Below, one piece after another: positions 30,250 to 63,974 of a DNA stretch of 64,000 nt (positions within the stretch are counted from its first letter, which is position 1; each line of letters starts with the position of its first letter). The notes under the pieces are model-generated. The model saw only the letters and a program-made list of their open reading frames with translations, was not told the DNA's origin and ran no database searches. Both the position numbers and the translations under genes were made by a program. The stretch is from positions 17,734 to 81,733 of the forward strand of contig CAKOVS010000003.1 of assembly GCA_934122085.1 (NCBI GenBank), written 5' to 3'. Source of the stretch: an uncultured Clostridia bacterium (GTDB lineage: Bacteria > Bacillota > Clostridia > TANB77 > CAG-508).

Positions 30250-30267
30250 TTATACCAATCCTTTCTT

Positions 30268-33013: not shown

Positions 33014-33027
33014 TTTTGCACCTCCTT

Positions 33028-33974: not shown

Positions 33975-34008
33975 AAAAAGCACTACATTTTGCTATATAG
34001 TGCTTTTT
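33975..34008. terminator. Bidirectional intrinsic terminator
   Basis: aaaaagcacta-cattttgctata-tagtgcttttt. Confidence 0.55.
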
Positions 34009-34010
34009 AA

Positions 34011-35105: not shown

Positions 35106-35150
35106 AATTCTCCTCATTTCTTTCATCATAGTTTAAGTTTTATAAAAAAA

Positions 35151-35621: not shown

Positions 35622-35695
35622 CTTTTTACACTCCTTTTCTTTATTTTTATATCACAAATATCCACAAAAATTGCACTATTTGTGGATATTTATTA

Positions 35696-36670: not shown

Positions 36671-36858
36671 ATTTCCTCCTTGTATAATATATTTTTTGGT
36701 TAAAGTCTCCCCCACATTCATATTATTTCTTAATTAAACTTTTTTATAATTATAACATTCTTTTTGTTTTTGTAAAATAAAATATTGTAAATTTTAGTAA
36801 CAAAAATAGATCTAATATTGTAATTAACTTACTGGATATTAGGTCTATTTTGCTTTTA

Positions 36859-42526: not shown

Positions 42527-42645
42527 CATACCTCCTCTGTTTATAATAATACAATAAAAAATAAAAAATGTAAATTAATTTCATAAATTTGTAAAAAAAA
42601 TATATACATGATATAATAAGACAAATAATAAAAATGGAGGAAGTT

Positions 42646-46869: not shown

Positions 46870-46954
46870 TTTTTACTTGTTTTTTTAAGCGAACTAATAT
46901 GAAGTGAACCCAAATTATTAGACAAAAAAGTTTAATAAGGAGGGTTCATTTTCT

Positions 46955-47467
46955 ATGTCAAAATATTCAAATGAGTTAAAATTAAAAGTTGCAAAATATT
47001 GTGTAGAACAATATCATGGATATTCAGATGCAGCAAAATATTTTAATATTCCAAGCGAGACTACAGTATATCAATGGGTTAGGAGATATAAAGAAAAAGG
47101 AGTAGCAGGATTATTAAAAAACAAAAAAACTTCATATAGTGGAGAATTTAAACAAGATGTGGTAGAATATATGCATAAAAACCATTTATCAGCAACAGAA
47201 ACAGCTATAAAATTTAATTTAGCCAATCATACTATAGTATTAAAATGGGAACGTATATATTATGAGGAAGGGCCACAAGCATTGTTTAGAGAACGACGTG
47301 GTAGAAATAAAAATATGAGTTCTAAACCAAGAAAAAAGAAATTATCTAAAGAAAATAAAGAAGATTTAATAGAAGAAGTTCAAAGATTAAGAATGGAAAA
47401 TGCATACTTAAAAAAATTGCAAGCCTTAATTCAGGAAAGGACAAAGCCAAAACAAGAGAAAAAGTAA
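46955..47467 (+). CDS. IS3-family transposase OrfA (HTH + leucine zipper)
   Basis: HTH N-terminus, LRMENAYLKKLQALIQE zipper. Confidence 0.8.
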   Translation: MSKYSNELKLKVAKYCVEQYHGYSDAAKYFNIPSETTVYQWVRRYKEKGVAGLLKNKKTSYSGEFKQDVVEYMHKNHLSATETAIKFNLANHTIVLKWERIYYEEGPQALFRERRGRNKNMSSKPRKKKLSKENKEDLIEEVQRLRMENAYLKKLQALIQERTKPKQEKK

Positions 47468-47508
47468 TAGTAATAGATGAATTAAGGCATGAATTTAAAT
47501 TAGAGACT

Positions 47509-48312
47509 TTGTTAAAGTTTGCAGAAGTAAAAAGGAGTACTTTTTATTATCAATTAAATAGAATGCAAGTACCAGATAAATACAAAGAAATAAAAGAACA
47601 AATAACATCTATATATCACGAAAATAAAGGAAGATATGGTTATAGAAGAATTACATTAGAACTTCATAATAGAGGATTTATAATTAACCACAAAACAGTT
47701 ATAAGATTAATGAGAGATTTAGGATTACAATGTTTTATTAGAGTTCAAAAATATAAATCTTATAAAGGTGAAATAGGAAAAATATGTGATAATCTTCTAA
47801 ATAGAGAATTTGAAGCTGAAGAACCAAATCAAAAATGGGTTACAGATGTAACAGAATTTAAAGTACATAACGAAAAACTGTATTTATCACCTATAGTAGA
47901 TTTATTTAATGGAGAAGTAATTAGTTTTAACTTATCAAGACATCCGGTATTCGCACAAGTAGTAGATATGTTAGAAAAAGCTTTTAATAAAATACCAGAT
48001 AATACAAATTTGATATTACATTCAGATCAAGGATGGCAGTATCAGATGAAGCAATATCAACACTTATTAAAAGAAAAAGGCATTAGGCAAAGTATGTCAA
48101 GAAAAGGTAATTGTTTAGATAATTCATTAGCAGAGAATTTCTTTGGTTTATTAAAATCAGAATTATTTTATATGAAAGATTATAAAACGATAGAAGAATT
48201 AGAAAAAGATATAATAGAATATATAGATTATTATAATAATAAAAGGATAAAAGGCAAACTAAAAGGAATGAGCCCTGTTCAATACAGAACTCACTCCTTA
48301 GAAGTTGCTTAG
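47509..48312 (+). CDS. IS3-family transposase OrfB (DDE integrase core)
   Basis: ...VSRSTFYY-like start, DDE residues (VTDVTEF ... HSDQGWQY ... NSLAENFF); open -1 frame extends back to the A7 slip site. Confidence 0.8.
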   Translation: MLKFAEVKRSTFYYQLNRMQVPDKYKEIKEQITSIYHENKGRYGYRRITLELHNRGFIINHKTVIRLMRDLGLQCFIRVQKYKSYKGEIGKICDNLLNREFEAEEPNQKWVTDVTEFKVHNEKLYLSPIVDLFNGEVISFNLSRHPVFAQVVDMLEKAFNKIPDNTNLILHSDQGWQYQMKQYQHLLKEKGIRQSMSRKGNCLDNSLAENFFGLLKSELFYMKDYKTIEELEKDIIEYIDYYNNKRIKGKLKGMSPVQYRTHSLEVA

Positions 48313-48398
48313 TACCTAATCAAAAAATGTCCAATTTTTTGGGTTCAGTACATAACTCGCCTTTTTATATAAGAAATAACTACTGTAATTTTTCACAT

Positions 48399-50162
48399 CT
48401 AATTATTTTCTAAATCAAATATTAGTTTTTTTAAATCAATAATATAGATTGGCGTTGCTTGATTTGAATAATTTAAAATATAATTAGTTTCTGGTAATAT
48501 CATTTCATTTTCTTTGAACAAATTAGATTTATTAATTGTTGTTAAAGATATATCTGCTTTATTCATTTCTTGAATATCTGTATCATTCACGTCCCAACAA
48601 ACAATGTAATCTATTTCATTTGCATATTTTTCGTTGTTTTCAAAATCTCTAATTATATTTCTTAGATGTGATTTAAATTCTATGCATATAAAATGATTAT
48701 TATATTCTGCATAAAGATCATACTTTTCTCTATATCCTGATATTATTGGTTTAACCTTATCTATTTTTCCCATTCCTACAAGTTCATAAAAAATTGCTGC
48801 TACACTTGCCTCTTGCTCAGATGGTAATTTTTTAAAATTAATTATTGAATTATTTAATGCTGGCAAACTATCAATTTTCATTTTTATTTCATCTCTATCC
48901 CAAATTGGATTATTGTCTATATCTGGTTCTCCTGCAACATACTTTGAAATGTATTTTGTATAATCACTAAATATTTCTTTTGCATATTTTTTATAAATAT
49001 TTTTGATACTTCCATTTATTGATTTTCTTCCTATATCAAATTTTAGCATATCATCTTCAAAAATCATAAATAAATTTGGCCAATATCCAGTTTTACCTGT
49101 AAGTGGAGGCTCGATTATAATTCCTGTTGGCATTCCTTTTACTGATGTGTATATCCCTGATTGATGTGTTGTGAAAAATTTATCTTGTAAAATGTCTTCA
49201 TTGTCTATATCATTTTCATCTAATAATCCATCTTTGCACGAAATCTTTTTCCATAATGTTCTTTGTGGTACATAACATGTCCAAAATTTTATTGTTCTCA
49301 CATTGTTATGTTTATATTCACCCATTTTATATATAATTTTATTTTTTAATTTATTTCTTTTTTCCTGATCTGATGATGTTGGATTTTCTTTTAGCCATTT
49401 TTTAAAAACTTCTAAATCAAACAAATCCTTTTTTTCCAAACTTTCTGTAGGTATCCAATATTTATATTCCAATTTTTCTTCCTTGGTATTTTCAGCTAAA
49501 TCAGTATATATCAATGTAACATCAATATTTGAATTATTATCAAATAAGTTCAAAACATTTCCAATAGCAGTTTTAGTCCTTATTACATACTTTATAGAAT
49601 TAAAATCTAATTCAAATAATTGCTGATTTTCAATCCCTTCAACACATATATCTGTTCCTATGAATCCTTCTTTATTTTCTGAAGATAAATTTAAGCAAAA
49701 ATCTTCATCACTATCACTATTCTTCCATGTTTTTGCTCCAGGTATTTTTACTACAAATTTTTCAGTAGATTTATCAGTTGTTGTCTTCATAATAAAATTG
49801 TCACTCGAAAACAAAACAAATTTTAGTCCTACTCCTTTTTCTCCAATTGTTTCTTTATCATCTTCTTTATCAGTAGAAAATGGTGTTAATAAAACTGGTA
49901 TTTTTTCCTTTTCTATCCCTATTCCCGTATCAATAACTTGTATTGATCTTTTATGAGCATTAATAATTATTTTTATGCTCCCCTTTCTTTCTTCCGTTTT
50001 ATTAATTGCATCTACACTATTTTGAACCAATTCAGCAATTATATCCCAAAAGTTATTATAGCTATCTTCTATCCCCTTTATGCTTTTCCTTATAATAAAG
50101 TTATTAGGCATTAAAAATGGTATTTTTTCAGTATCCATAATATTTACTATTTCCCCTTTCAA
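48399..50162 (-). CDS. MORC-like GHKL ATPase with C-terminal restriction-endonuclease-fold (DUF3883-like) domain
   Basis: ELVQNSVDAI ... IDTGIGI ... GEKGVGLKF Bergerat motifs; C-terminal D...(ICIEFK) PD-(D/E)xK-like pattern. Confidence 0.6.
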   Translation of the reverse strand: MKGEIVNIMDTEKIPFLMPNNFIIRKSIKGIEDSYNNFWDIIAELVQNSVDAINKTEERKGSIKIIINAHKRSIQVIDTGIGIEKEKIPVLLTPFSTDKEDDKETIGEKGVGLKFVLFSSDNFIMKTTTDKSTEKFVVKIPGAKTWKNSDSDEDFCLNLSSENKEGFIGTDICVEGIENQQLFELDFNSIKYVIRTKTAIGNVLNLFDNNSNIDVTLIYTDLAENTKEEKLEYKYWIPTESLEKKDLFDLEVFKKWLKENPTSSDQEKRNKLKNKIIYKMGEYKHNNVRTIKFWTCYVPQRTLWKKISCKDGLLDENDIDNEDILQDKFFTTHQSGIYTSVKGMPTGIIIEPPLTGKTGYWPNLFMIFEDDMLKFDIGRKSINGSIKNIYKKYAKEIFSDYTKYISKYVAGEPDIDNNPIWDRDEIKMKIDSLPALNNSIINFKKLPSEQEASVAAIFYELVGMGKIDKVKPIISGYREKYDLYAEYNNHFICIEFKSHLRNIIRDFENNEKYANEIDYIVCWDVNDTDIQEMNKADISLTTINKSNLFKENEMILPETNYILNYSNQATPIYIIDLKKLIFDLENN

Positions 50163-50173
50163 TTTCGTTTATT

Positions 50174-51568
50174 TCAATTTTCTATCAAATAATAATCTTT
50201 TAAATCCTTTTCAGATATATCCAATCCTTTTTCATGTAATAATTCTTTTCTTTTTAAATATAGATTGTGCAATGCTGGTTTCCTTTCAACATCTTCGCCT
50301 AAGTGTACTAATCTATGACAATGTGGACACAATGTTACATAATTTTCAACAACTTCTATGCTATTTTCAAAATCATTTCCAACTGCTCTAGGAATCAAAT
50401 GGTGTACTTCCACATAATTTTTATGTGATTCTTTGCTTGTAAAATATTGACATCCATAAAAATCTTCCAGCTCACATCTGTAGTTACTATTAACTTTAGC
50501 AAGTTTTTTCAATACAGTACTTACTCTGTTGTATTTTTCAACTGCATACATATCAGTATCGTCTATTTTTTCATTTAAGTCTACATCTTGTTCATTAACT
50601 TCTTTTTCATCTCTAAAGTTTAAAGAATACTGTATGATATCAAATAATTCTTCATATATAAGTTTGTACACTGCTTCATGATCTGCTATAAAACTTTTTA
50701 TTTTCTCTATATCAATATTTATATATATTTCATTATATCTGAATAGTGCATAATCTATAAAATCTTCATAGTTTTTATATGAATTGTTTAGTAAAATAAG
50801 AGAAAAATATTGTATTTTCGCATTATCAACTAATGTGGATTTTACATATGAACCTGTTGATTTATATTTATATGATATTGTACATGTTTCTTCTTTTGTA
50901 ATTTCTCTATTTCTAGGTCGACTTTGCACATATTCTTTTAATTCTTTCTTTTCAGCATCGCTTGCATTAATAAACATTTGTAAAAAATCAATGTCTTCAA
51001 AATCTTTATAAAAGGAATCAAAGTATAAGTAATCATTCATAAATATTTCTTCTGTACCAATATCGCAACTATCAATAAAGTTTTTTAAGATACTTATATA
51101 TTTTTCTTTACTTACACCTCTTTTTTCCATAAAGTTTACAATTTCATTGCTTCTTACATCTATATAATTAGGAATATTAGCAAAATATCCATTTAGAATT
51201 GTTAAATATATAAGTATCCAACGCTCTTCTTTTGAAAAATCACTATCTAACATATCACCAAAGGCTAATCCTTTTTTATTTCTATAATATTTGTTTGATG
51301 CCCTAGAAAAAATTTTTGATTTTAACATATTAACTGTATGCTGTTTTTCTTTTTCTTCCCCATGATTTTCATGATGAATCCATTGGTCTCTTCCTATATT
51401 TTCAATTTCTTTAAAAACATCATAACCTGTCTCAAATACCCATAAATTTCTATAATTTGTATTTAAAAAATATAGTATTTTTCCATTTGAATTTTCACCT
51501 GTAGAACAATAAGCATCATACCATCTATTATTTCTACATAAATCTTTATATATATCTACTAAATTCAT
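50174..51568 (-). CDS. HNH nuclease-domain protein (paralog 1)
   Basis: C-terminus CELEDFYGCQYF...HHLIPRAVGNDFENSIEVVENYVTLCPHCHRLVH = HNH with two Cys pairs. Confidence 0.7.
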   Translation of the reverse strand: MNLVDIYKDLCRNNRWYDAYCSTGENSNGKILYFLNTNYRNLWVFETGYDVFKEIENIGRDQWIHHENHGEEKEKQHTVNMLKSKIFSRASNKYYRNKKGLAFGDMLDSDFSKEERWILIYLTILNGYFANIPNYIDVRSNEIVNFMEKRGVSKEKYISILKNFIDSCDIGTEEIFMNDYLYFDSFYKDFEDIDFLQMFINASDAEKKELKEYVQSRPRNREITKEETCTISYKYKSTGSYVKSTLVDNAKIQYFSLILLNNSYKNYEDFIDYALFRYNEIYINIDIEKIKSFIADHEAVYKLIYEELFDIIQYSLNFRDEKEVNEQDVDLNEKIDDTDMYAVEKYNRVSTVLKKLAKVNSNYRCELEDFYGCQYFTSKESHKNYVEVHHLIPRAVGNDFENSIEVVENYVTLCPHCHRLVHLGEDVERKPALHNLYLKRKELLHEKGLDISEKDLKDYYLIEN

Positions 51569-51643
51569 CTTTTTTCCCCCGTTAATATTGTATCATACAT
51601 TATATAAAAAATAAATAAAAGAGGAAAATGTTTCCCCTTTTAT

Positions 51644-53107
51644 TTATTCTTCAATATTATAATAATCTTTTAATTCTTTAAGCTTTATATTAATCCCTTT
51701 TGACACTAATTGTTCTTTTCTCTTTGAAAATAAATATTCAATATCTCTTACTCTATCTTCGTCTTTTGCATGATGCAGCCTTCTGTGGCAATTAGGACAT
51801 AACGCAACAAGGTTAGCAATAACATCTATACTATTTTCGAAATCATTACTGAATTCCATTTGTACAAGATGATGTGCTTCTAAGAAATTTTTATTAGATG
51901 CTTTTGATGTGAAATATTGACATTTATTTCTATCACCTAGTTCGCAAAGATATCCTGATCTTCTTTTAGCAGTTTCCTTTTTTAATGAACTGCTTTTGCA
52001 TTTTTTTATTTCTTCAAATTCGTTTTCTCCTATATCAGTTCTTGGTTCTGGGCCTTCAACCTCTGAAAACGAATTGATTTCATTTTCGCTAATTACATCT
52101 TCTATATTATTTTCTTTACTAATGTTTAACACATTATAATATATATCTTGAAATATATCTCTATTACCATCTATAATACTTCTTACCAAAGCTCTATTAT
52201 AATTTTCTATTTTCTCATAACTCTCTAAAATAATATCTATAAAATTATTAAATGAAACCTCTCCAATATTTCTTAAATTTTCAGAAATATACAATGTTTT
52301 AGCATCATCTATCAACATGTTTTTATCGTAATTTCCTTGATTAGGAATTTTCTGGAATTTTTTAGCTATTATACATTGATTTTCTTTTTCTCCATTGTTC
52401 CAATTAAATCTTATATACGAATATAATTCCATTTTTTCTTCAGCAGAAGCTTTAATATATTCTGGTATAAAATTTATACTATATCCTTTTTTATTATATG
52501 GTTTAAAAAAAGATTCAAAATATACAAAATCATATTTTAATAATTCTTCAAAATCTCTATCTTGGCTTTCAATTATTTTTTTTGCTGTTTCTATAATTAT
52601 ATCTTCTGTTAATCCCTGCTCTATTAAAGTATCGATAATTTCAAAACTTTTATTTATAATGTAATTTACTTTAACATCAAAATATGCATCTAATAAAAGA
52701 ATATATGATAAAATCCATATATCTTTTTCTTTTAAGTCTCTATTATTTAATATTTTTTCTATAAATAATCCTTTAGGATTAGGAAAATATAAATCTTCCT
52801 CATCTACATTTTTTCTGTTAAATATTTTTGCTTGTCTCATTCTAGTTGTATATATTTTATGTTGTTTTTGTTTATATGAACTATTTTTAGGCCATTCGCT
52901 ACTTTTTAATCCTGCAACAGATTTGAATTTTTTATAATCATTAATAAAACTTATATTATATCTAAAATTTGTGTTTCTAAACCAATATACGTTTCCTAAT
53001 GGTTTAATTCCTAGTCCTTTTATTTTTTTTGTAGTTCCACACCTTGAATACAAACTATAAATTTTAGAATCTTCAGACATTTTTTTATAATATTCCAAAA
53101 TAGTCAT
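51644..53107 (-). CDS. HNH nuclease-domain protein (paralog 2)
   Basis: CELGDRNKCQYF...HHLVQMEFSNDFENSIDVIANLVALCPNCHRRLHH; N-terminal region also homologous to paralog 1. Confidence 0.7.
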   Translation of the reverse strand: MTILEYYKKMSEDSKIYSLYSRCGTTKKIKGLGIKPLGNVYWFRNTNFRYNISFINDYKKFKSVAGLKSSEWPKNSSYKQKQHKIYTTRMRQAKIFNRKNVDEEDLYFPNPKGLFIEKILNNRDLKEKDIWILSYILLLDAYFDVKVNYIINKSFEIIDTLIEQGLTEDIIIETAKKIIESQDRDFEELLKYDFVYFESFFKPYNKKGYSINFIPEYIKASAEEKMELYSYIRFNWNNGEKENQCIIAKKFQKIPNQGNYDKNMLIDDAKTLYISENLRNIGEVSFNNFIDIILESYEKIENYNRALVRSIIDGNRDIFQDIYYNVLNISKENNIEDVISENEINSFSEVEGPEPRTDIGENEFEEIKKCKSSSLKKETAKRRSGYLCELGDRNKCQYFTSKASNKNFLEAHHLVQMEFSNDFENSIDVIANLVALCPNCHRRLHHAKDEDRVRDIEYLFSKRKEQLVSKGINIKLKELKDYYNIEE

Positions 53108-53110
53108 AAA

Positions 53111-54130
53111 TTATTCCTCCACCTTACAAACAAATAATCTTTCTTTATGTTTGTCTAAATTTGTTTTTCCTGAATTAAAAAATTTATAATCTGTTTCATA
53201 AACGCTTACTTTTCCCTTTTTTTCAAGTATTTGCATCATATCATTATATGTTATTGAATTTACAGATGATGTACTTTTTGCTTCATATGTGTTATTATAT
53301 GATACAATAATATATTTAGCATTAATATTTTCTATCAAATCTGTGAACACTGTTTTTGCATTTGCCTTACAGTATTCACTCATTATATTTTTTCTTTCCA
53401 TTTTTTTGGCTTTATTATATACTTTTGGTTTTTTCCATTGTGCAACATTTTCTAATAAATGATAAAAATTAGCATATTGTCTAGCATTATATGGCGGATC
53501 TATATACATTACATCTACTTTTATTTTTCTAACTAAACTATTAGCATCTTCATTATAAATATGCGAATTTGAATTATATAATTTAATATTTAAATTACTT
53601 ATTTGTAAGTTCTTATATTCAGGTTCTTTATTTAAAAAACTTTCATAGTGACCCACTGTATTAGATATTCTATCCATTGAATATAATAAACATGATATTA
53701 AAATATAGTATTCTCTATCATTAATTTCTTTATTTAAATATCTATTTTCAATATCTTCCCTAACATATCCAATTTTTTTAGCATCTTTATAATGATAATA
53801 ATTTCCACTAAAGTTATCAGAAAAATAATTATCCTGTATTTTTTCAACATCTATTCTATTATAGTCATCTATAATTTTTATAATTTTTTCTTCCTCATAT
53901 TTTTCGTTACTTAACAATGCTTTATATATAACAAAATTTGAGAACAATAAATCATTAACGTATATTTCTTTGCCTTTATTCAAAAAGTATTCTGCAACAA
54001 CTCCTGTCCCTGAAAACACATCTCCAAAGGTACAGAATCTTATTTTCTCTTTTTTTATGGTATCATCTATAAATTTTAAAAGTTTACTTTTATTTCCTAT
54101 ATATCTTCTATTTTCTATATTTAGTCCCAA
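53111..54130 (-). CDS. Dam-like (D12 class) N6-adenine DNA methyltransferase
   Basis: YIGNKSKLL ... FGDVFSGTGVV (motif I) ... MYIDPPYNA (motif IV). Confidence 0.8.
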   Translation of the reverse strand: MGLNIENRRYIGNKSKLLKFIDDTIKKEKIRFCTFGDVFSGTGVVAEYFLNKGKEIYVNDLLFSNFVIYKALLSNEKYEEEKIIKIIDDYNRIDVEKIQDNYFSDNFSGNYYHYKDAKKIGYVREDIENRYLNKEINDREYYILISCLLYSMDRISNTVGHYESFLNKEPEYKNLQISNLNIKLYNSNSHIYNEDANSLVRKIKVDVMYIDPPYNARQYANFYHLLENVAQWKKPKVYNKAKKMERKNIMSEYCKANAKTVFTDLIENINAKYIIVSYNNTYEAKSTSSVNSITYNDMMQILEKKGKVSVYETDYKFFNSGKTNLDKHKERLFVCKVEE

Positions 54131-54132
54131 CT

Positions 54133-55086
54133 TTATTCCTCCACTTTGTAATTTGTAATTAGTACTTCTTCTTCTAATCCATCTCTATTCTTTTTATTAT
54201 AACTAGCTGATCTATAATGATATTCTATTTCATTTATAAAGTATTTATCTTTATTCTTTTCTAGCCAGTTATATAAAATTTCATTTTTTATATTTAATTT
54301 TTTCTTTTGTAATACATTTGATAAAGCAAATTTTATTCCTTTTTTGTTTAATTTATCTAACAGATTTAATAATTCTCTTTCTTCTTTTTCATTCCATCCT
54401 GCATTTTCATTATATACTGCATCAGTAATAAGGTAAGGAGGATCAGCATATACAAATTCCACTTCTTTTAGGTCTTTAATGTCTATTTTCTTAAAATCTT
54501 TACAGACGAATTCAATTTTCTTTTCTTTACATATATCAATATATTTTTTTAATTTTTCTCTGTTATTCTTATTCATGTCTGTCTTGCCTACTGGTAAATT
54601 AAACTCACCTTTTGAATTAAATCTAATATCATTATTAAAAGCGTAAACCATAAGTAAATATAGATATAAATTTGCCTTATCTGTTTTTTTATCCTTTAGT
54701 TTATTGTAATCATTTTTTAATCGATTATATCCTTCAAAATTATATTTTTTTAATCCATTATTTCCTTCTACATATTGTCTATAATATGAATAACCATATT
54801 TATATGAATTTGATAATCCATACTTTTCAATTAATGTATCTATCTTGTTTATTAAAGTTGAATAATCTTGTTTTTTTAAAAACATAAGTAAATTTATTAC
54901 TTTAGGATTATTATCTATAGCAATAATTTCTTCTGCAATAAGATTTATCGCAACAGTAGCTCCTCCTGTAAATAAGTCAACACATTTATTTACATTTTTA
55001 GGGAAACATTTAATAAACTGTGGTAAAATTCTGTATTTATTTCCTGTGTAATTTATTGGTGATTTACAAACTTGTGCTAAACACAT
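54133..55086 (-). CDS. Dam-like (D12 class) N6-adenine DNA methyltransferase (second)
   Basis: YTGNKYRIL ... VDLFTGGATVAINL ... VYADPPYLIT. Confidence 0.8.
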   Translation of the reverse strand: MCLAQVCKSPINYTGNKYRILPQFIKCFPKNVNKCVDLFTGGATVAINLIAEEIIAIDNNPKVINLLMFLKKQDYSTLINKIDTLIEKYGLSNSYKYGYSYYRQYVEGNNGLKKYNFEGYNRLKNDYNKLKDKKTDKANLYLYLLMVYAFNNDIRFNSKGEFNLPVGKTDMNKNNREKLKKYIDICKEKKIEFVCKDFKKIDIKDLKEVEFVYADPPYLITDAVYNENAGWNEKEERELLNLLDKLNKKGIKFALSNVLQKKKLNIKNEILYNWLEKNKDKYFINEIEYHYRSASYNKKNRDGLEEEVLITNYKVEE

Positions 55087-55087
55087 A

Positions 55088-55315
55088 TTATTTTTTCTCC
55101 TTCTTTTTATTTTCATATTGCATTACATCTTGTATATTGCAATTTAAATATTTGCATATTTTATCTATTACAACCAATGATACTATTTTGTCTGAATTTA
55201 ATTTTGCCATAGTTGCAGAAGATATCTGCAAAATATCTTTTAATTCCCCACATGATAAATCTTTATCAATTAATAATTTTCGTAACGGCTTATAAGATAT
55301 CATTTTGCCCCCCAA
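55088..55315 (-). CDS. XRE-family HTH protein (candidate R-M controller / C-protein)
   Basis: 75 aa, LSCGELKDILQISSATMAKLNSDKIVSLVVIDKICKYLNCNIQDV; immediately upstream of the MTase genes. Confidence 0.6.
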   Translation of the reverse strand: MGGKMISYKPLRKLLIDKDLSCGELKDILQISSATMAKLNSDKIVSLVVIDKICKYLNCNIQDVMQYENKKKEKK

Positions 55316-56090: not shown

Positions 56091-56906
56091 TTATACTAAC
56101 TCTTTTTTCATGTTTTTTAGTTTTATTCCAAAGCACATCTGATACAATTTTGATATTATTGCATCTACTAAATCTGGATCTTTACTATAACTAAATCTTT
56201 CAATTAATCCCTGTTTATTAAACCTTGTTGTTATGATTATTGGTAACCCATTTTCATATCTATTCTGAATTATTGTGTATAATTTTTCTAATGCCCAGTT
56301 ACTTATTTTCTCTGTTCCTAAATCATCAATTATAAGCATATCTGCATTTGAATAAATCTCTATTAATTCATTTTCTGATTTAGTATTGTTCTCATAAGTT
56401 TCTCTTATTCTGTCCAATAGGTTAGTTAATCTCTCCATTAAAACTATTTTATCATTCTCTATTAATTTGTTTGCAATAGCTGCTGCTAAATGTGTTTTAC
56501 CTACATCTGACTTGCCCATTATTATCAGACTATCAGGTTTCATTGTATCTTTATTTTTATTGATATAATCATTTACAACATCTAACACATACTTATTACT
56601 TGAATCAAAATAAAAGTTTTCTAGGTTCATTTCTTGTAATTTTCTGCCTATATAATTTTGTTTGTAGATTGTATTTATAATATTTCTAATTCTATTTCTT
56701 TTTTGCTGTTCGCATTCTTTATTGTCTATTTCTTTCCAATACTCTTTAGATTTACTACAATCACATCTTTCATATTCAATACTATCTTCAGAAATATTTA
56801 CATATAGATAATCAATTCCTATTGGTCGTAATTCTTTACCACAAAATTCACACTTTTTGAATCTATTGTGTATAACTTCATCATAATTTGTACTTTCTGA
56901 ATCCAT
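56091..56906 (-). CDS. DnaC/IstB-like replicative helicase loader ATPase with N-terminal zinc ribbon
   Basis: CEFCGKEL...CDCSKS; Walker A GKSDVGKTHLAAAIA; Walker B LIIDDLG. Confidence 0.75.
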   Translation of the reverse strand: MDSESTNYDEVIHNRFKKCEFCGKELRPIGIDYLYVNISEDSIEYERCDCSKSKEYWKEIDNKECEQQKRNRIRNIINTIYKQNYIGRKLQEMNLENFYFDSSNKYVLDVVNDYINKNKDTMKPDSLIIMGKSDVGKTHLAAAIANKLIENDKIVLMERLTNLLDRIRETYENNTKSENELIEIYSNADMLIIDDLGTEKISNWALEKLYTIIQNRYENGLPIIITTRFNKQGLIERFSYSKDPDLVDAIISKLYQMCFGIKLKNMKKELV

Positions 56907-57405
56907 TGTTTTCCTCCTCTCCTATATTTTCTTCTTTTCTTATTTCTTTTGTTATCTTTTCTTCTTTTTTCTCTTCTGTTGCGTTACGTGACGTTACTGT
57001 AACGTTACTTTTTTCACTTTCATTTTTCAATTTTTCACGATATTTTCTTTGTCTTTCACTATTCTTTGATAGATAATCTTCATGTCTATCAAGGCTTTGA
57101 TACTTGTTCCAGTTTTTTATAACAAATACATTCTCTTCCTTTTTAAGCATTTCTAATTCTAGAAGTTTTTCCAATATTTTGCTCATTTTTTTCGAAGATT
57201 TTCCCATAATTTTCGAAAATTCTTTAATAGAAATAGGATTATTTCCAATTATTAATCTTCCACCATCTCCACATTCTACTGCTAATGATAATAATTGTAT
57301 CCATATTCTAAAATATGTATCTCCATCATTCAGGCTTAGAAGCAATTGGATTTTTCTATTACAGAAAATATTCTTTTCTAGTTTGAACCATTGAATATCA
57401 TACAT
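56881..57405 (-). CDS. Phage replisome organiser N-terminal domain protein (DnaD-like)
   Basis: MYDIQWFKLEKNIFCNRKIQLL matches the M.IQWFKL..NIFDDEKI start of phage replisome-organiser proteins; overlaps the dnaC-like start. Confidence 0.6.
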   Translation of the reverse strand: MYDIQWFKLEKNIFCNRKIQLLLSLNDGDTYFRIWIQLLSLAVECGDGGRLIIGNNPISIKEFSKIMGKSSKKMSKILEKLLELEMLKKEENVFVIKNWNKYQSLDRHEDYLSKNSERQRKYREKLKNESEKSNVTVTSRNATEEKKEEKITKEIRKEENIGEEENNGFRKYKL

Positions 57406-57432
57406 ATCCTCCTTTCCTCTCTTTCTATTTAA

Positions 57433-57633
57433 TTAGTAGTTAACTGATTCTTGTTCTTTAGAACTCAAATATTCATCTAATACTTGTACTCTAAACAAGA
57501 ATTTTCCACCAACTTTTGAGCCTGGTATTTCTTTTCTTCTTACTAATTGATTAATTAACCAGTAAGAAATTCCTAAATACTCTGCTGCTTCTTTCATTGT
57601 TAGTGTTGTCCTTTGTACTTTTTGTAGTTCCAT
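57433..57633 (-). CDS. Excisionase/MerR-family HTH DNA-binding protein
   Basis: LTMKEAAEYLGISYWLINQLVRRKEIPGSKVGGKFLF pattern (HTH_17). Confidence 0.55.
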   Translation of the reverse strand: MELQKVQRTTLTMKEAAEYLGISYWLINQLVRRKEIPGSKVGGKFLFRVQVLDEYLSSKEQESVNY

Positions 57634-57820
57634 ACAAATGCCTCCTTTCATTTATGTATTTGAATTGGCTAGCCATAGTTAACAAGTTTTATGAAGTTTT
57701 TCTTGTTAACTAATTGAATTTTACCACGCAATATGGTAAAATCCTACTAGATTAAGTGAATTCAGTTATCAAAACGAAACTTTTGGTTTTTTTATGATTT
57801 GTTAACAAAGGAGATTTGAT

Positions 57821-58471
57821 ATGGAAAGAAAGAATAAAATCGGTATTTCTTTTGCTTCTTCATGTTTTTCTCAAATATTCATTCATACTTCAGGAGCATA
57901 CTTAAGCAAACCTATCAGCAAAAATAATAATAAGTATTTTGCAAATTTAAGAAATGTTCCTCCTGATGAAAGATTTGGAAAATTAGTTCTAGAACTTGAG
58001 AAAGCTAATTCTGAATCAGAACGAGAAAAAATACTAAGTGAATTAAACGCAATTACTGAAATAGATAAGACAATTGAATCAAAGCCATTAACTTTTAAGG
58101 ATAATATTGAAAAATTAAAGGGTTATATTGTTTTCGAGCCAACTACTGCTGTTGAACATTATGATCTTTCTCTTTTAGATTTCATAAGTTATGATTTTGA
58201 TGTATTTAATGATTATTTATTGTTTTTTATAAATTTCTTTGATTATTTTATAGATAAATTAGATGATAAAGATATTAAGTATATTGAACTAGATACTTTA
58301 TACCCTGTAAAAGAAATAGTAGAATTAGCCCAAAAATATTATGATAAAGAAAAAGATAATTTAATATACTATCAAAATATTTTCAAAAAATGTATTAATT
58401 TTGTTTATGGTATTGATAATTCTTTTGACATGAAATATTTAACTTATAAACAAATATTTTTTTTTGTATAA
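57821..58471 (+). CDS. Hypothetical protein
   Basis: ORF track only. Confidence 0.3.
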   Translation: MERKNKIGISFASSCFSQIFIHTSGAYLSKPISKNNNKYFANLRNVPPDERFGKLVLELEKANSESEREKILSELNAITEIDKTIESKPLTFKDNIEKLKGYIVFEPTTAVEHYDLSLLDFISYDFDVFNDYLLFFINFFDYFIDKLDDKDIKYIELDTLYPVKEIVELAQKYYDKEKDNLIYYQNIFKKCINFVYGIDNSFDMKYLTYKQIFFFV

Positions 58472-59063
58472 TCAAATAAATCCAAATACTTTTTCAGAAT
58501 TTAAACAAGATTTTCATTCAACAGATTTATTAGATTATCAATATAGCAGTTTTCCTATACAAAAAGATCTTATTAAATTTTATGATGTTGATGCTTTAGT
58601 TTCTGCTATCGAAGAAGTAGATCCTACTGGAAGAAAACTTCATAGTCTTCAACAATTTGAAACTACTAATTTATTTACAAGTTTTTATATTACACTATTT
58701 AATGTAGTAGCAATAAATGATAAACTCATTAAAATATGTGGTAATTGTAAAAGATATTTTATAACACACAAAGAAACAGTAACTTATTGTGATAGAATTA
58801 TTGAAGACAAATTAACCTGTAAAGATATTGGAAATAGAGAATATCAAAAAAGGAAATTAGAAAATGACCCTACCTATGATAGATATAGAAAACTTGGAAG
58901 TAAAAAACAACTTAGACGTGATAGAAATCCAGAAATAGAAATATATAAACAAGATCTTGAACAATACAGAAAAATAGGAAAGCAAATGTATAAAGATTTT
59001 TACTCTGGTAAAATAACTCATGAAGAATTTGAGGAATGGGTAAATGAACAAGATAAAAAATAG
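58464..59063 (+). CDS. Hypothetical protein with Cys4 zinc-ribbon
   Basis: CGNCKRY...CDRI...C. Confidence 0.3.
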   Translation: MYNQINPNTFSEFKQDFHSTDLLDYQYSSFPIQKDLIKFYDVDALVSAIEEVDPTGRKLHSLQQFETTNLFTSFYITLFNVVAINDKLIKICGNCKRYFITHKETVTYCDRIIEDKLTCKDIGNREYQKRKLENDPTYDRYRKLGSKKQLRRDRNPEIEIYKQDLEQYRKIGKQMYKDFYSGKITHEEFEEWVNEQDKK

Positions 59064-59082
59064 GAGAAATTTTCTCCTATTT

Positions 59083-60399
59083 TTATTTTATTCTTACTAA
59101 TATTTCCTTGCTTTTGGCTATACACACTCCATTATTTACTACAAAGGCTTGAACCCAGTGAGTTCCCGTATATGATGTACTTTCGTGTCTACCATAGGAA
59201 TAAATATTTGATGTTTCAAATCCACCTCTTAAGCAATTATTTTCTTTTGCTTCTTCTCCAGTATTAACGACTTGCCAAAATATTTTAGTGTTACTTGAAA
59301 ATGCTGCTGCACCTACAACTGTAAAATCAATATTTACACTTTTATCTAATATACTATCTCCTTCTGGATTATAATCTATTAAATAATTATATCTATCATA
59401 GCACTTTACTTTAACATCTACTAATGAAATATTACTTCCTTCATACCAATCTGGCTTTGCTTTATAAGGTACATTAAAAAAACTATTATATTTGTCTTTT
59501 ATTGCTTCTAATAATGAATTGCTTGCCATTTGTTCCTTAGGAAATTCAGTACCAAGTATCTTTCTCCAACTTTCATTAGAACAATTATATTTTTCTAGCA
59601 TGTTTATATGATTTTCTAGTTTATTATAGAAATACTTAAAATCTTCAAACTCATAACAATCTGATAAATTATCTGTTAATATACCTGGATCTGCTATAAA
59701 TGGTTTTGTTCCATTTTCAATATAAGGTCTAAAAGTACTTACTATATTTTTCATGGTATTAAGTACAATGTCCTCATACGTATTATTACAATCATATAAA
59801 TTATCAGCAATAATTTTTTCAAGTGTTATTCCTTTCGGATATTTAATATTTTGGGGACAATTATTTTTTCTCCACCATTTAAAAATTTTTACTATTCTTA
59901 CAAATTTATCATGATTTTCTTGGTTAATTCTCGTACACCATTCTATATGACCTTTAGGATTTGTCCTTTTCCATTTTCCATCGTTCTTGTTTCCTATTTT
60001 ATACATTGAAAAAATCTTATCTTCTATCATTGGCACAACATCTATTTCTGTACCTTCCATTTCTATTCCTATTGATCTACTTTGTTTTTTTACATTATCG
60101 TATTTTTCTTTACAAACTTTGTATAATTCATCTAGTACTTCTTTTGAATCATATTGTTCTGTATAATTGGTTACTACAACAATATCAACATCTGTCTTTC
60201 CATCATATTTAGTTGGTCTAATACATGTATGCTTTGCATATGAACCAGTTAAAAATGTCTCTATTACTTTTTCTTTATATACATCATGAGATTCCAGAAA
60301 ACCTCTTAAATTTGTTTGTATACTCGAAACATATTTCTTGGTTGTTGGAGATGGTTCAATATTATGTAGAAACTCTTCAAAATCTTTTTCTTTACTCAT
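59083..60399 (-). CDS. Pol-beta-superfamily nucleotidyltransferase (SMODS/CD-NTase-like)
   Basis: GS...DVD pattern: TFLTGSYAKHTCIRPTKYDGKTDVDIVVV, then a third acidic residue (EIDVVPM); 438 aa. Confidence 0.5.
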   Translation of the reverse strand: MSKEKDFEEFLHNIEPSPTTKKYVSSIQTNLRGFLESHDVYKEKVIETFLTGSYAKHTCIRPTKYDGKTDVDIVVVTNYTEQYDSKEVLDELYKVCKEKYDNVKKQSRSIGIEMEGTEIDVVPMIEDKIFSMYKIGNKNDGKWKRTNPKGHIEWCTRINQENHDKFVRIVKIFKWWRKNNCPQNIKYPKGITLEKIIADNLYDCNNTYEDIVLNTMKNIVSTFRPYIENGTKPFIADPGILTDNLSDCYEFEDFKYFYNKLENHINMLEKYNCSNESWRKILGTEFPKEQMASNSLLEAIKDKYNSFFNVPYKAKPDWYEGSNISLVDVKVKCYDRYNYLIDYNPEGDSILDKSVNIDFTVVGAAAFSSNTKIFWQVVNTGEEAKENNCLRGGFETSNIYSYGRHESTSYTGTHWVQAFVVNNGVCIAKSKEILVRIK

Positions 60400-61147
60400 C
60401 TGTTCTAAAATCCTCCTCCGTATTAAAATTAAATGAATTTAATGCATTTGCATATTTTCTAATATCAATTGCAGCTACTGTTCCAATTTCATGTAATTCA
60501 TTATTAAGATTAAAGAATAACCCTAATATCGATTCATCTGCACTTGTTTTTTCAAATTCTATACTACCATCTTTCTTTTTTATACTAGTAAATGAATAAC
60601 CATTAATTGCACATCCCAAGTCGATATTCCTATTGTTTTTTAAATGATTAATAATTGTTTCATCATTTGCTATATCCATATTAGTAGCCAATATGATTCC
60701 TAATATATGTGTTAAATTTCTTCCTGCTGTTCTTCTTCCTGCACATGTCATACCTCTTGATGATCTTTTTAACTCTTTTACAGACTGAATTTTTTCATTA
60801 GCATATTCTATATTTCCTTTATCGATATTAGGTTTAACTTCAACAATAGCATAAATTGCTTCAGCTGGAATGAATTTTTCTCCTGTATTACTAACTAATA
60901 CAAAAGGTGAGTATAAAGCATCATAAATAATCAAATCAATTTGTTCACTTACATTTCCTTCATAGTCAATTACATATCCTTTATCCACTCCATATTTTCC
61001 TGGTAGTATTTCTTTAAGAAATTTTTTCCAACTTTCTTCAGAATTATCACCATTTCCTGTAGGATGTGGTATTGTTCCACTTTCTCCTAAAAATGCTGCT
61101 AATGTATTTTGCTTTGCAGCTAATAAATTATATAATTGATTTTTCAT
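60392..61147 (-). CDS. PD-(D/E)xK (restriction-endonuclease-fold) protein, candidate effector
   Basis: EQIDLIIYD ... AIYAIVEVK (D...E-x-K spacing about 27 aa); 251 aa; overlaps the NTase start by 8 nt. Confidence 0.4.
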   Translation of the reverse strand: MKNQLYNLLAAKQNTLAAFLGESGTIPHPTGNGDNSEESWKKFLKEILPGKYGVDKGYVIDYEGNVSEQIDLIIYDALYSPFVLVSNTGEKFIPAEAIYAIVEVKPNIDKGNIEYANEKIQSVKELKRSSRGMTCAGRRTAGRNLTHILGIILATNMDIANDETIINHLKNNRNIDLGCAINGYSFTSIKKKDGSIEFEKTSADESILGLFFNLNNELHEIGTVAAIDIRKYANALNSFNFNTEEDFRTDE

Positions 61148-61411
61148 CTTCTTTCCTCCTATAATAAAAAATAGTCTTAATTCCTTAAGACCATCTTATT
61201 CTAGTTGTTTCATTATAATATAACAGAACATATTGGTCCTCCTTTCCAGAACCAGACAAATGTTTCGTATTTACAAATGCAACAAATTGTATTATAATAT
61301 AAATGTATGTATGATCTGGGGAGATTAATATATACACTTATATTGGACCAACATTCGCTTGGTTCTTTTTTTTATTTAAGTTTGTTTTACGACTAACTCA
61401 TAAAAGTCAAT

Positions 61412-62701
61412 TTATTTTATTCCTTTTAAGAATTCATCTATTTGTTCTTTATTTGGTTGTACTATGATTTGCTCTTTTTTATATATAGTAGAGACTAAAG
61501 CATCTCCTTTTATTCTTTTTCCATCTACCTTTATGTTTGACATTTTCATAGCTTCAACATTCCCATCAATATTGTTTAATAGGTATATTGCATCTTGCTT
61601 AAATAATTTTTGATTTTCTTCATTTAAACAATCAAAAATTTCTGGTAAATTAGTAGTAAATAAAATTTGCGTTGCATTATTATCTAATTGCACAAATAAT
61701 CTTAATACTAAAAATATTAATTCTTTATGCATATTTAGCTCTATTTCATCAATTAATAAATTTCCATTTTTGTTTATTACATCTATTGCATTTAAAACCA
61801 AATTTAGGAACCTTTTTGTTCCAGTTGATAGGCTTTCTCTGGTTATACTTCCACCTGTTTTTAATTCATATATTAATTCTTCATTATCATTATCTGGTTT
61901 CATTTTAATACACTTTATTTTTGGATCAATTATTTTTACTATTGCTTCCATCAATTTTGAATTTTTTTTGTAAAATTTTATAAAGCTCATGTCTTCAATA
62001 AAATCTGGTATATCAATTCCTATAATATCAGAATTTTTAATATAATGTTTAAAAAATGTATTTATGTATTTGTATTTATATTCTAGAGATTCCTTATTTA
62101 TCATTTCTAAATCTAACATATTATCATGATATCTATTAATATAATATAATTGACATTCTGTTGTATTTTTTAAATCAAGAATATAGTCTTTTTCGTCATT
62201 GTAATTTTTTCTATATGAAAATTCTTCTTTAACGATTTTTCTATTTTTCCCATTCAATTGTAAAATGTAATTATAGTATCCCGTTAGCATTTCATCTTCT
62301 ATATACATTTCCACTTCAAGATATGTATCTTCTTCTGGCTTACTCACATTTTGAACCTCTATAACAACACTATTATTGATTTTTTCTATCATTTGGTTTA
62401 TTTGATCTTTATCATATTCCATATTTTTAATAAGATTTCTTATTTTTTTTCTTTCTTCTTTATAATCTAGAGTCATAATAGGTTCAAGCATTAAACTACC
62501 AAGTGTACCTAAAGCGTCAATAACTGTTGTTTTTCCACTTGCATTTCCTGCTAATATGCCAACAAGTTTGTTAATATAAATTCCATCATGCGTTTTATAT
62601 AAAGATATTTGTTCATCCTTTTTTCTACTTTTAGCTATAAAATCAAATTGTATCCTATTTAAAATACCTTCAAAATTTTCAATACATACTTTAGTAAACA
62701 T
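61412..62701 (-). CDS. ABC-type (AAA_21/AAA_15-like) ATPase of the kind found in abortive-infection/OLD/PARIS-type systems
   Basis: Walker A GNASGKTT, signature-like LSTGTKRFL, Walker B LLIDEIELNMH. Confidence 0.6.
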   Translation of the reverse strand: MFTKVCIENFEGILNRIQFDFIAKSRKKDEQISLYKTHDGIYINKLVGILAGNASGKTTVIDALGTLGSLMLEPIMTLDYKEERKKIRNLIKNMEYDKDQINQMIEKINNSVVIEVQNVSKPEEDTYLEVEMYIEDEMLTGYYNYILQLNGKNRKIVKEEFSYRKNYNDEKDYILDLKNTTECQLYYINRYHDNMLDLEMINKESLEYKYKYINTFFKHYIKNSDIIGIDIPDFIEDMSFIKFYKKNSKLMEAIVKIIDPKIKCIKMKPDNDNEELIYELKTGGSITRESLSTGTKRFLNLVLNAIDVINKNGNLLIDEIELNMHKELIFLVLRLFVQLDNNATQILFTTNLPEIFDCLNEENQKLFKQDAIYLLNNIDGNVEAMKMSNIKVDGKRIKGDALVSTIYKKEQIIVQPNKEQIDEFLKGIK

Positions 62702-62949
62702 TTGCTTACCTCCTGTGATGTATTATAATTTATTTTCTTGTTTTTGTCAATAGTTTATGCCTTATTTAGGCACAATTATTTATTTTTAGACATAATAATG
62801 CCTATCGTAGCTTGTTTATTCTTGTATTTATGCCTTTTTTAAGATTAACGGCTGGCTTTTGTTATCATTTTTTGTATAATTTATATTGTTAACAGATATA
62901 TTATTCTTCCTCCCACCCATAGGTATGCCTGAAAGGATGTGAAAAAGGT

Positions 62950-63974
62950 ATGTACATTGAAGGAAAATCTCTTAAATTTGAAGACTTTGTAGAAATATGG
63001 AAAAGAGATTATGGCGAAAAAGAATTAGCACCTTCAACATACAAAAGATATATTGGAATACTAGAAACTAGAATTATACCTTTCTTTAAGCATTTTCATG
63101 TTGATAAAATAAAACCAACAGATATAATGCAGTTCTACGACTTATTAAGTAAAGATACTCAAATAGTAAGAAGAAAAGACAACAATGGTAAAAAACAGGT
63201 AAACCACTTTCATCAAAAAATATTGTTGAACATCACAGACTTCTTCGTGCTATGTTACAAAAAGCAGTGTATTGGCAACTAATACTTTCAAATCCTGCAG
63301 AACGTGTTCAAGCACCTAAAACTAAAAAGCCTAAAAGAAAATACTATGATGATGAACAAAGTAAAATATTAGTTTCAAATTTAATGGATCTTTCTCAAGA
63401 ACAAATTAAATATAAAACTGCAATCATCTTAACAGTATTTACTGGAGTTAGACTTGGAGAGCTTATGGGATTAGAATGGAACGATATTAATTTCAATGAT
63501 GGAATTGTAAGCATTAATCGTTCTAGTCAGTATTTGGCAGACAAAGGTGTATTTACCAAAACACCTAAGACAGAAAGTTCTATTAGAGAAGTCGGAATAC
63601 CAGATTTCGTTGTTTCATTACTTGAAGAATATAAATCATGGTATGATGAACAAAAAGAGTTATATGGCGAATTATGGACTGATTCTAATAGGTTATTTGT
63701 ACAAGCAGATGGTAAGCCAATGCATCCTTCTACTATTAGTAAATGGTTTGTAAAATTTGTAGAACAAATAGGACTACCTGTAATTAACTTCCATGGGTTA
63801 AGGCACACAAATGCGACCTTACTCATAGCACAAAATATTGATGTTCCAATTGTAGCAGCAAGACTTGGACATGCACAGATTACAACAACGCTTAATTTTT
63901 ATGTGCATCCTATTATTGCACATAATAAAAAAGCAAGTTATGTTTTAGAAAACTTGCTACTACCAAGAAATTAG
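62950..63974 (+). pseudogene. Tyrosine recombinase/integrase interrupted by a frameshift in an A6 tract
   Basis: Two overlapping ORFs (62950..63282, 63252..63974). Adding one A at 63196-63201 gives a continuous integrase (...DNNGKKTGKPLSSKNIVEHHRLLRAMLQKAVYWQLI...); C-terminus HGLRHT...LGHAQITTTLNFYVH catalytic R/H/Y. Confidence 0.7.

Follow-up and report, generated by a model that had tools for sequence, protein, structure and literature searches.

What kind of system is encoded by two overlapping genes that lie on an integrated mobile element in an uncultured gut-type Clostridia bacterium? The genes, here called nucC and cdn, span positions 59083-61147 of a 64,000-nucleotide stretch of contig CAKOVS010000003.1 (hereafter the window). 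We propose, with a probability of roughly 0.88, that they form a minimal type I CBASS (antiphage signaling based on cyclic oligonucleotides), an anti-phage operon that reads nucC then cdn and is carried as cargo by an integrative element. CBASS classification here draws on a 2023 preprint that surveys type I systems (bioRxiv 10.1101/2023.05.21.541620). As a CBASS locus the pair holds no surprise: it is one that PADLOC-type tools would call, and earlier work has described both the fusion of an AGS-C domain to the cyclase and the use of NucC by type I systems.

Both genes are intact, ATG-started open reading frames (ORFs) on the minus strand, encoding proteins of 251 amino acids (60392-61147) and 438 amino acids (59083-60399). 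The minus strand at their junction reads ...ACAGATGAGTAAAG... (in another excerpt, ...AGAACAGATGAGTAAAGAA...), with the cyclase ATG at 60399-60397, the nuclease TAA at 60394-60392 and the 8 nt ATGAGTAA common to both genes. A GGAGG-type ribosome-binding site stands ahead of each, and we infer that nucC and cdn are translationally coupled through the overlap. The first-pass annotation, made from the sequence alone, had listed two overlapping ORFs with an 8-nt overlap and quoted a nucleotidyltransferase and a nuclease motif; genes, overlap and motifs are all present where it placed them, and only the order needs correction, since the coding strand reads nuclease, then cyclase. The motifs read T51-G52-S53-Y54, D70-V-D72 and I119-D120 in the 438-aa protein and I70-D71 and E103-V-K105 in the 251-aa protein. 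Such short motifs alone are weak evidence and could arise by chance; judged by sequence profiles, the family matches of both proteins are not explicable in that way. Two plus-strand ORFs within the same region (59961..60212 and 60225..60599) were treated as spurious because they are of low complexity and antisense to two strongly supported genes. A DNA similarity search of 59083-61147 against phage and plasmid collections returned no match.

The family assignment of the nuclease is the simpler of the two. The 251-aa protein matches Pfam DUF6602 (2.5e-30) and the PADLOC model "Endonuclease (NucC)" (2e-69 over 2-238 of the 244-position profile), and matches to solved NucC structures, which range overall from 9e-33 to 4e-25 and span residues 12-236, include those from Serratia (7zgv, 9.1e-33), Vibrio metoecus (6uxf, 5e-29), Pseudomonas aeruginosa (6q1h, 6e-28) and Escherichia coli MS115-1 (6p7o, 7e-26). 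What had been noted as a nuclease of NucC-like size is thus a true NucC homologue. Functional sites of E. coli NucC (bioRxiv 10.1101/694703) were transferred through sequence alignment. The active-site residues D73, E104 and K106 correspond to D71, E103 and K105, giving an IDx30EAK-type site (I70-D71...E103-V104-K105) with a 31-residue spacer and V replacing A. Among the residues that contact 3',3',3'-cyclic triadenylate (cA3), Y81, T226 and V227 correspond to Y79, T223 and V224, and R53 to K51, a conservative change at a position that is basic in all NucC homologues aligned. By homology, the protein is a NucC endonuclease with an intact IDx(n)ExK active site and conserved cA3-contact residues. 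An acidic C-terminal tail, L-x-SFNFNTEEDFRTxE (residues ~235-251; window 60392-60445, minus strand), is conserved in this NucC subfamily and absent in the solved proteobacterial NucCs.

NucC homologues are also used by type III CRISPR systems, for example in Vibrio metoecus and Serratia. The best structural match being the Serratia protein, and a CRISPR-Cas locus being present in the window, one might suppose that this NucC answers to the cA3 of a Cas10 and that its adjacency to a nucleotidyltransferase is coincidental. We consider this very unlikely: the CRISPR locus lies ~30 kb away and looks like type I-B (Cas3, Cas8b-like), no Cas10 was found among the ORFs scanned, nucC and the cyclase gene overlap by 8 nt, and their pairing is conserved in 28 loci.

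The 438-aa protein carries a Pfam SMODS match over residues 1-159 (E 1.9e-39; 136 bits against a cut-off of 26.5; full profile 1-164) and, C-terminal to the cyclase, an AGS_C match over residues 322-438 (E 1.2e-25; 90.4 bits against a cut-off of 26.7). Among many PADLOC "oligonucleotide cyclase" models the best is PDLC00773 (1.9e-82), and some span the full length including the C-terminal domain; NCBIfam CBASS_cyclase equivalogs match at 1.9e-29, which is under their strict 200-bit cut-off. In a single-sequence search of the PDB, the best match is BcCdnD, a 340-aa cGAS/DncV-like nucleotidyltransferase (CD-NTase) of Bacillus cereus (9SA4/9SA5/9SAX; 1.4e-63 over residues 1-298). Next come the CdnD proteins of Enterobacter and Salmonella (~1e-31; CdnD02 1e-31), then P. 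aeruginosa CdnD (PaCdnD) and E. coli CdnC (EcCdnC). A profile of 84 homologues returned the same ranking (BcCdnD 1.4e-86, CdnD02 5e-49, PaCdnD 1e-19, DwCdnB 3e-9, EcCdnC 1e-8), with CdnE, DncV and CdnG marginal. G52, S53, Y54, D70, D72 and D120 are invariant across the 84 homologues, and the catalytic residues align with BcCdnD S51-Y54, D73/D75 and the MDL motif.

In the AlphaFold model of the cyclase (predicted local distance difference test score, pLDDT, 88.2), residues 1-290 fold as a CD-NTase core, 291-307 are a disordered linker, and the C-terminal domain is all beta. Foldseek places CdnD first (7d4u; 3.1e-24, target template-modelling score 0.78), then CdnB/CdnC, CdnG, CdnE and DncV; the model matches every other solved CD-NTase clade too, with the bilobed arrangement of nucleotidyltransferase core and helical lobe. 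By sequence, profile and fold the nearest solved relatives belong to clade D, clades F/H being unrepresented among the solved structures matched. Homology and the predicted model together identify the protein as a catalytically intact CD-NTase with nearest solved relatives in clade D. The earlier call of a Pol-beta nucleotidyltransferase of the SMODS/CD-NTase type holds at the levels of profile, intact GS...DxD core and predicted structure, which fits CdnD; its "large helical C-terminal half" holds in part, as residues 1-290 make up a complete CD-NTase while 319-438 form an all-beta Ig-like domain behind the disordered 291-307.

A non-signalling pair, whether a minimal nucleotidyltransferase (MNT) or KNTase toxin-antitoxin system or an AbiEii-like abortive-infection system, would share the generic GS...DxD Pol-beta signature of this protein and could explain its sub-threshold NTP_transf_2 match (E 0.15), the sole trace of a non-signalling family in the profile scans. 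Matches to SMODS, to the PADLOC cyclase models and to CdnD structures are stronger by many orders of magnitude, and what the protein is paired with is a NucC instead of a HEPN or antitoxin protein; we regard the chance of such a pair as negligible. The separate nucleotidyltransferase-nuclease toxin pair that had been held out as an alternative is accordingly not needed, the SMODS, cyclase, CdnD and NucC matches refuting it at sequence and fold level.

The C-terminal domain has the Ig-like beta-sandwich fold of AGS-C (PF18134) and, from the model, appears flexibly tethered to the core by a linker that is poorly conserved (residues 291-318). Within the family, AGS-C is on the whole the faster-diverging part, being 38% identical to distant members where the core is 52% identical. 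It retains an invariant polar cluster, W375, Q376, N379, T380, G381, A384, R391, G392, F394, E406, H414 and Q417. This cluster (WQxxNTGxEA...R-G-F...E...H..Q) looks like a fixed ligand or partner site more than a hypervariable antigen-binding surface, and the nucC-cdn pair offers a compact system for asking what AGS-C does.

Pfam scans found no Cap2/Cap3 (E1/E2/JAB), HORMA, TRIP13 or SAVED gene among the ORFs of 41190-63974, as the first-pass annotation had also reported. The nearby absence of these genes therefore points to a minimal two-gene type I CBASS, the arrangement it had suggested, and both family assignments and the adjacency of the genes support it. Systems of this kind are established: a type I CdnC03-NucC operon was tested and functional (Richmond-Buccola et al., bioRxiv 10.1101/2023.05.21.541620), and the same survey reports AGS-C fusions in ~40% of type I CBASS, the domain being associated with shifted phage specificity. 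The window pair shares with these systems a cyclase and effector without Cap2/3 or HORMA/TRIP13, an ~18-kDa Ig-like C-terminal AGS-C fusion, and NucC as a type I effector. It differs in that CdnC03 is a clade-C cyclase without AGS-C, whereas here an AGS-C fusion on a core nearest clade D is paired with NucC; the effector gene leads the operon; and the pair is found in Gram-positive gut anaerobes rather than gammaproteobacteria. Type I cyclases of clades A, C, D and E are reported to lack AGS-C (bioRxiv 10.1101/2023.05.21.541620), and if phylogeny confirms clade D, this gut-anaerobe cyclase family would be an exception to its absence in clade-D type I cyclases.

Other known systems resemble the pair in part. 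BcCdnD, from a type II CBASS (PMC13424991), is the closest solved cyclase and has the same xGSY, xDVDI and xDh motifs; unlike the window protein it lacks AGS-C (340 aa), is controlled through conjugation by Cap2/Cap3 and through substrate inhibition by ATP, and has Cap4, a SAVED-nuclease, as its effector in place of NucC. The type III CBASS of E. coli MS115-1 and P. aeruginosa, CdnC/CdnD-HORMA-TRIP13-NucC (bioRxiv 10.1101/694703), shares the NucC fold family, the IDx30EAK-type site, the equivalents of the Y81/T226/V227 cA3 contacts and a cyclic-trinucleotide cyclase partner; the window by contrast has neither HORMA nor TRIP13, and its NucC lacks the H136/Y141 latch, has K for R53 and adds the acidic tail. 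The AGS-C domain of EcPycC (PDB 9ARD), a Pycsar cytidylate cyclase, is fused to a different cyclase superfamily and is too dissimilar in sequence for profile detection.

Which messenger might the pair use? BcCdnD makes 3',3',3'-cA3, a product that also activates NucC, and in the XGSX motif S/T at the first position goes with cA3, while EcCdnD/SeCdnD, written QGSI, make cyclic AMP-AMP-GMP, cAAG (PMC13424991). The cyclase here is ~50% similar to BcCdnD and carries TGSY, like the cA3-making PaCdnD. From the TGSY motif, BcCdnD as closest solved cyclase and the NucC partner, we predict a cyclic trinucleotide, by analogy most likely 3',3',3'-cA3. In the mechanism that we envisage, phage infection would release the cyclase from inhibition, with the AGS-C domain probably taking part in sensing or gating, a role we propose in view of the lack of a Cap2/3 or HORMA/TRIP13 regulator. 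The released cyclase would make the cyclic trinucleotide, most likely 3',3',3'-cA3, one molecule of which would bind per three-fold pocket of a NucC trimer; two trimers would join as a hexamer that cuts double-stranded DNA indiscriminately, and the infected cell would die before the phage cycle is completed (abortive infection). The NucC steps, from cA3 in the trimer pocket through hexamer assembly and indiscriminate double-stranded DNA cleavage to abortive infection, are modelled on those described in bioRxiv 10.1101/694703.

The pairing is conserved well beyond this genome. When one genome per species was scanned, 368 stretches proved to encode a relative of the cyclase, and the best 79 loci were examined. 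Of these, all 28 loci whose cyclase is 38-82% identical (28/28) carry nucC on the same strand, directly upstream of the cyclase gene, and the loci L001-L007 likewise hold the NucC-cyclase pair; the genes around it are unrelated from locus to locus. The nucC-cdn offset of -7 recurs in L001-L005 and L043, most other loci having -49 to +19 nt. Hosts include Clostridia (Oscillospiraceae, Lachnospiraceae, Faecalibacterium, Ruminiclostridium), Anaerorhabdus (Erysipelotrichia), Bifidobacterium biavatii, some Collinsella/Olsenella/Slackia and one Anaerolineaceae genome. The exact proteins are absent from the protein collection, where the best identities are 87% (cyclase), 94% (NucC) and 94% (the ATPase encoded upstream of nucC); its cyclase homologues come mostly from gut and rumen metagenomes, and all full-length ones are SMODS + AGS_C proteins of ~437 aa, a few truncated entries having SMODS alone. 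Overall, a module of NucC plus an AGS-C cyclase whose core is BcCdnD-like occurs widely, and in strict synteny, among gut Clostridia, Erysipelotrichia, Bifidobacterium, Coriobacteriia and Anaerolineae, lineages that are poorly covered by experimental CBASS surveys.

More distant relatives depart from this arrangement. In a Collinsella/Eggerthellaceae group (L033-L067; cyclase 36-37% identical), NucC is lacking and a predicted membrane protein of ~180-200 aa lies directly downstream; this clade is an effector swap, with a small transmembrane protein in place of NucC, and effector exchange on a conserved cyclase is a known CBASS pattern. Distant, AGS-C-less cyclase relatives in Proteobacteria sit in other operon types, and in one AGS-C-less locus (L073) the genes after the cyclase resemble a Cap2/Cap3 pair, as judged by their sizes alone. 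Enterococcus avium ATCC 14025 (L066) encodes NucC and then a 486-aa cyclase, 48% identical over residues 7-283, whose C-terminal part has no AGS-C profile match and may carry a different domain; a 967-aa protein is encoded upstream. Finally, in L009-L011 (cyclase 61% identical) an AAA ATPase (416 aa) and an RloB-like TOPRIM protein (212 aa) are encoded directly upstream of NucC-Cdn in a tight four-gene cluster with gaps of 24 nt and 3 nt; by phmmer this ATPase is not detectably similar to the window ATPase.

Some observations weigh against the CBASS operon reading. Its defence activity, trigger and nucleotide product are all inferred. In NucC, E. coli R53 is replaced by K51, and the gate-loop latch H136/Y141, essential in E. 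coli NucC (bioRxiv 10.1101/694703), is C135/T140 here in a loop of equal length; gate closure, and even ligand preference, may differ from the E. coli enzyme. An alignment of 16 homologues with four solved NucCs indicates that the latch positions vary in the Firmicute/Actinobacteria NucC subfamily while active site and pocket are kept, and Serratia NucC (7zgv), as aligned, also lacks the latch His. The latch change would argue for a variant gate, not against membership in the NucC family. Clade D is a provisional placement for the cyclase, which may instead belong to F or H, clades in which AGS-C fusions are reported to be common (bioRxiv 10.1101/2023.05.21.541620). Finally, two genes of the host element, those for the integrase and DUF6076, each fall into two ORFs because of a single-base frameshift: that of DUF6076 falls at a T10 run near 58460, and in the integrase a base is missing beside a T/A run near 63194. 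Relatives encode the integrase and DUF6076 as single ORFs of 395-398 and 412-425 aa, respectively. The element may be decaying, or the frameshifts may be sequencing error, while nucC, cdn and the ATPase gene are intact.

Taken to its end, decay of the element would make the pair an inactive remnant, as the two split genes could suggest. That is improbable: both ORFs are full length (438 and 251 aa, like their relatives), their catalytic residues, ribosome-binding sites and overlap are intact, and the frameshifts, in or beside homopolymer runs, may be errors of sequencing.

The CBASS pair is swappable cargo in a variable slot downstream of an AAA_21 ATPase gene on the integrative element, the parts of which are listed in Table 1. 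Relatives of the element have a backbone of 80-86% nucleotide identity from ~56020 to the integrase and diverge beyond. Past the backbone lies variable cargo: D12 methyltransferases and HNH proteins, two of each, then a HATPase protein, an IS3 element and a further restriction-modification-like block. DUF6076 was considered as a CBASS accessory and rejected, as it occurs only in the same element backbone. A tRNA scan for an integration site found none in the window, and a search for attachment (att) sites with the last 60 nt of the window gave only 12-mer chance matches; at its right end the element runs on past the window.

Table 1. Features of the nucC-cdn locus, its host element and the wider window
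Feature	Position	Strand	Description
nucC	60392..61147	-	251-aa NucC-family PD-(D/E)xK endonuclease; CBASS effector; first gene of the pair
cdn	59083..60399	-	438-aa CD-NTase fused to AGS-C domain; signal synthase; second gene
CD-NTase catalytic core	59530..60399	-	Residues 1-290; T51-G-S-Y54, D70, D72, D120
AGS-C Ig-like C-terminal domain	59086..59445	-	Residues 319-438
nucC stop/cdn start overlap	60392..60399	-	8 nt, ATGAGTAA, read from the sequence
Bidirectional terminator-like hairpin	59056..59084	.	Separates cdn from the convergent DUF6076 gene; 13-bp hairpin, T-run on either strand
AAA_21/ABC-type ATPase	61412..62701	-	429 aa, AbiLi-like; Pfam AAA_21 3.2e-15, PADLOC AbiLi 4.8e-32, AriA 7e-16
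Candidate convergent small RNA	61270..61373	+	~70 nt; promoter, AT-rich hairpin, intrinsic terminator; goes with the ATPase gene rather than with nucC/cdn themselves
nucC leader	61166..61231	-	Strong ribosome-binding site; 11-codon mini-ORF 61231-61196 (MFCYIIMKQLE); hairpin GGTCTTAAGGAATTAAGACT + T-run 61192-61166
Integrase	62950-63974	+	Frameshift-split; element backbone
DUF6076 gene	57821-59063	+	Convergent; split within T run; element backbone
Xis-like helix-turn-helix protein	57433-57651		Element backbone
Replisome organiser	56881-57405		Element backbone
DnaC-like loader	56091-56906		Element backbone
Defence-island remainder	41190-55116		Pfam-scanned ORFs
Type II methyltransferase	41190-42584
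800-aa HATPase protein + 610-aa protein without family	42634-46869
IS3-family transposase pair	46955-48312
HATPase protein	48399-50162
Two paralogous HNH proteins	50174-53107		464/487 aa
Two D12-class adenine methyltransferases	53111-55116
CRISPR array	23851-25409		24 copies of 30-nt repeat ATTTACATTCTAATATATTTAAATTAATAT, spacing ~66 nt
cas genes	25881-37530	-	Including Cas3 27402-29639 and Cas8b-like 31169-33013

The ATPase gene has a consensus promoter (62750-62722; TTGACA-17-TATAAT, 12/12). The protein is AAA_21/ABC-type, like the ATPases of AbiL (AbiLi + AbiLii/RloB-like) and PARIS (AriA + AriB), and differs from both in lacking an adjoining AbiLii/RloB/DUF4435 TOPRIM partner, in place of which stand a conserved non-coding module and a variable cassette. 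No partner nuclease gene (TOPRIM/RloB/DUF4435 or HNH) occurs between 61147 and 62950, and tblastn with an RloB-like protein found nothing in the window. ATPase homologues (29-99% identical; loci L087-L108) were gathered by protein look-up and a DNA pattern scan. Behind them lie several cassettes: NucC + Cdn-AGS-C; SMODS + Cap15-like (type I CBASS); SUa-2TM + SMODS + E2 (type II-like CBASS); the PADLOC candidates PDC-M48 (metallo-beta-lactamase (MBL) + transmembrane protein) and PDC-M50A + ThsB-TIR; and DUF8370. The type of cassette does not track the ATPase lineage, as independent shuffling at a hotspot is expected to give. The ATPase was likewise rejected as a required CBASS component, ~25 NucC-Cdn lineages having none and cassette type not following its lineage.

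The 265 nt between the ATPase gene and nucC hold a non-coding module with 86% mean column identity among close relatives. On the plus strand, a small-RNA candidate begins with a promoter at 61270-61298 (TTTACA-N17-TATAAT, 11/12), whose spacer contains a TACAA..TTGTA palindrome; a 16-19-bp AT-rich hairpin follows, then a terminator stem at 61345-61365 and a run of 8 T to 61373, which leaves 39 nt before the ATPase stop codon. A search of the window for the composite pattern gives one match, where chance would give 0. It stands beside every ATPase homologue examined (17 distinct sequences, including L004 with a one-base departure), whichever cassette follows, except L093, which has a deletion, and L098, a distant ATPase homologue. 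All 16 of the sequences folded adopt the same two-hairpin shape (z -3.2 to -6.7), and per-sequence folds reveal compensatory changes in both stems; the structural alignment from the covariance search was not used for pair counts, as it mixes forward with reverse-strand matches of the palindromic hairpin. The covariance model matches only ATPase-bearing loci with the pattern and L004, and none of the NucC-Cdn loci without the ATPase. A pattern scan of viral contigs for the module gave 0 matches, and an Rfam scan of 57300-63100 found nothing for leader or small-RNA candidate, its sole results being sub-threshold sraA-like matches on the cdn/DUF6076 terminator.

On the opposite strand, the nucC leader (fold z = -2.9) combines a mini-ORF, which stays in frame despite a 3-nt indel in L004, with a hairpin, and is possibly an attenuator. 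Analogous mini-ORFs (8-11 codons across loci) with hairpins lie ahead of the MBL and Cap15-CBASS cassettes in L094 and L099. The idea that the leader is a remnant of an RloB-like gene, as in L009, was dropped, since tblastn finds nothing. A minus-strand scan of the interval from the ATPase gene to nucC, a kind of scan that is weak evidence at 25% GC, found nothing promoter-like for nucC.

Could the functional unit be larger than the gene pair? It is possible, if rather unlikely, that the AAA_21 ATPase, the convergent small RNA, the leader mini-ORF/attenuator and nucC-cdn act together, with a front end that controls or co-operates with the toxic cassette; it could do so by transcription that reads through from the ATPase promoter, by antisense RNA or by anti-termination that depends on translation. 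The ATPase gene lies on the same strand behind a 12/12 promoter, no nucC promoter-like site was seen between the genes, and the leader hairpin with its T-run stops ~10 nt before the nucC ribosome-binding site. Promoter scans are, however, weak in 25% GC DNA (29 sites found against 33 expected). The non-coding module is visibly conserved even where the ATPase proteins are 45% identical; against this, L093 keeps the ATPase and has lost promoter and leader, and L087 has neither mini-ORF nor terminator. The ATPase lacks a nuclease partner of its own, unlike those of AbiL, PARIS and Septu, each of which has a cognate one, and its homologues (29-99%) precede several different defence cassettes. The independence of cassette type from ATPase lineage is nevertheless what hotspot shuffling predicts, and the ~25 other NucC-Cdn lineages have neither ATPase nor small-RNA match, so the pair does not need the module.

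The safest interpretation is a cassette slot that adjoins an ATPase/small-RNA module. Somewhat more doubtful than a joint functional unit is the broader notion that abortive-infection cassettes of several kinds, the CBASS pair among them, are interchangeable behind an undescribed shared regulatory or sensing module, which would silence toxic cassettes until infection; in this notion the promoter-spacer palindrome would serve as an operator. A literature search for a link of the ATPase or antisense RNA to CBASS returned nothing relevant. The ATPase/small-RNA/leader architecture is the only part of the locus that might be new, and, if functional, the cassette-slot architecture would bear on how toxic abortive-infection systems are silenced and exchanged between mobile elements.

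The rest of the window is chromosomal, with genes for PBP2, MreB and SufS/SufB. Some members of the HD + HD_assoc (dGTPase-like) family act in anti-phage depletion of deoxynucleoside triphosphates, and a 400-aa protein of this type, encoded at 22515-23717 (+), adjoins the CRISPR array.

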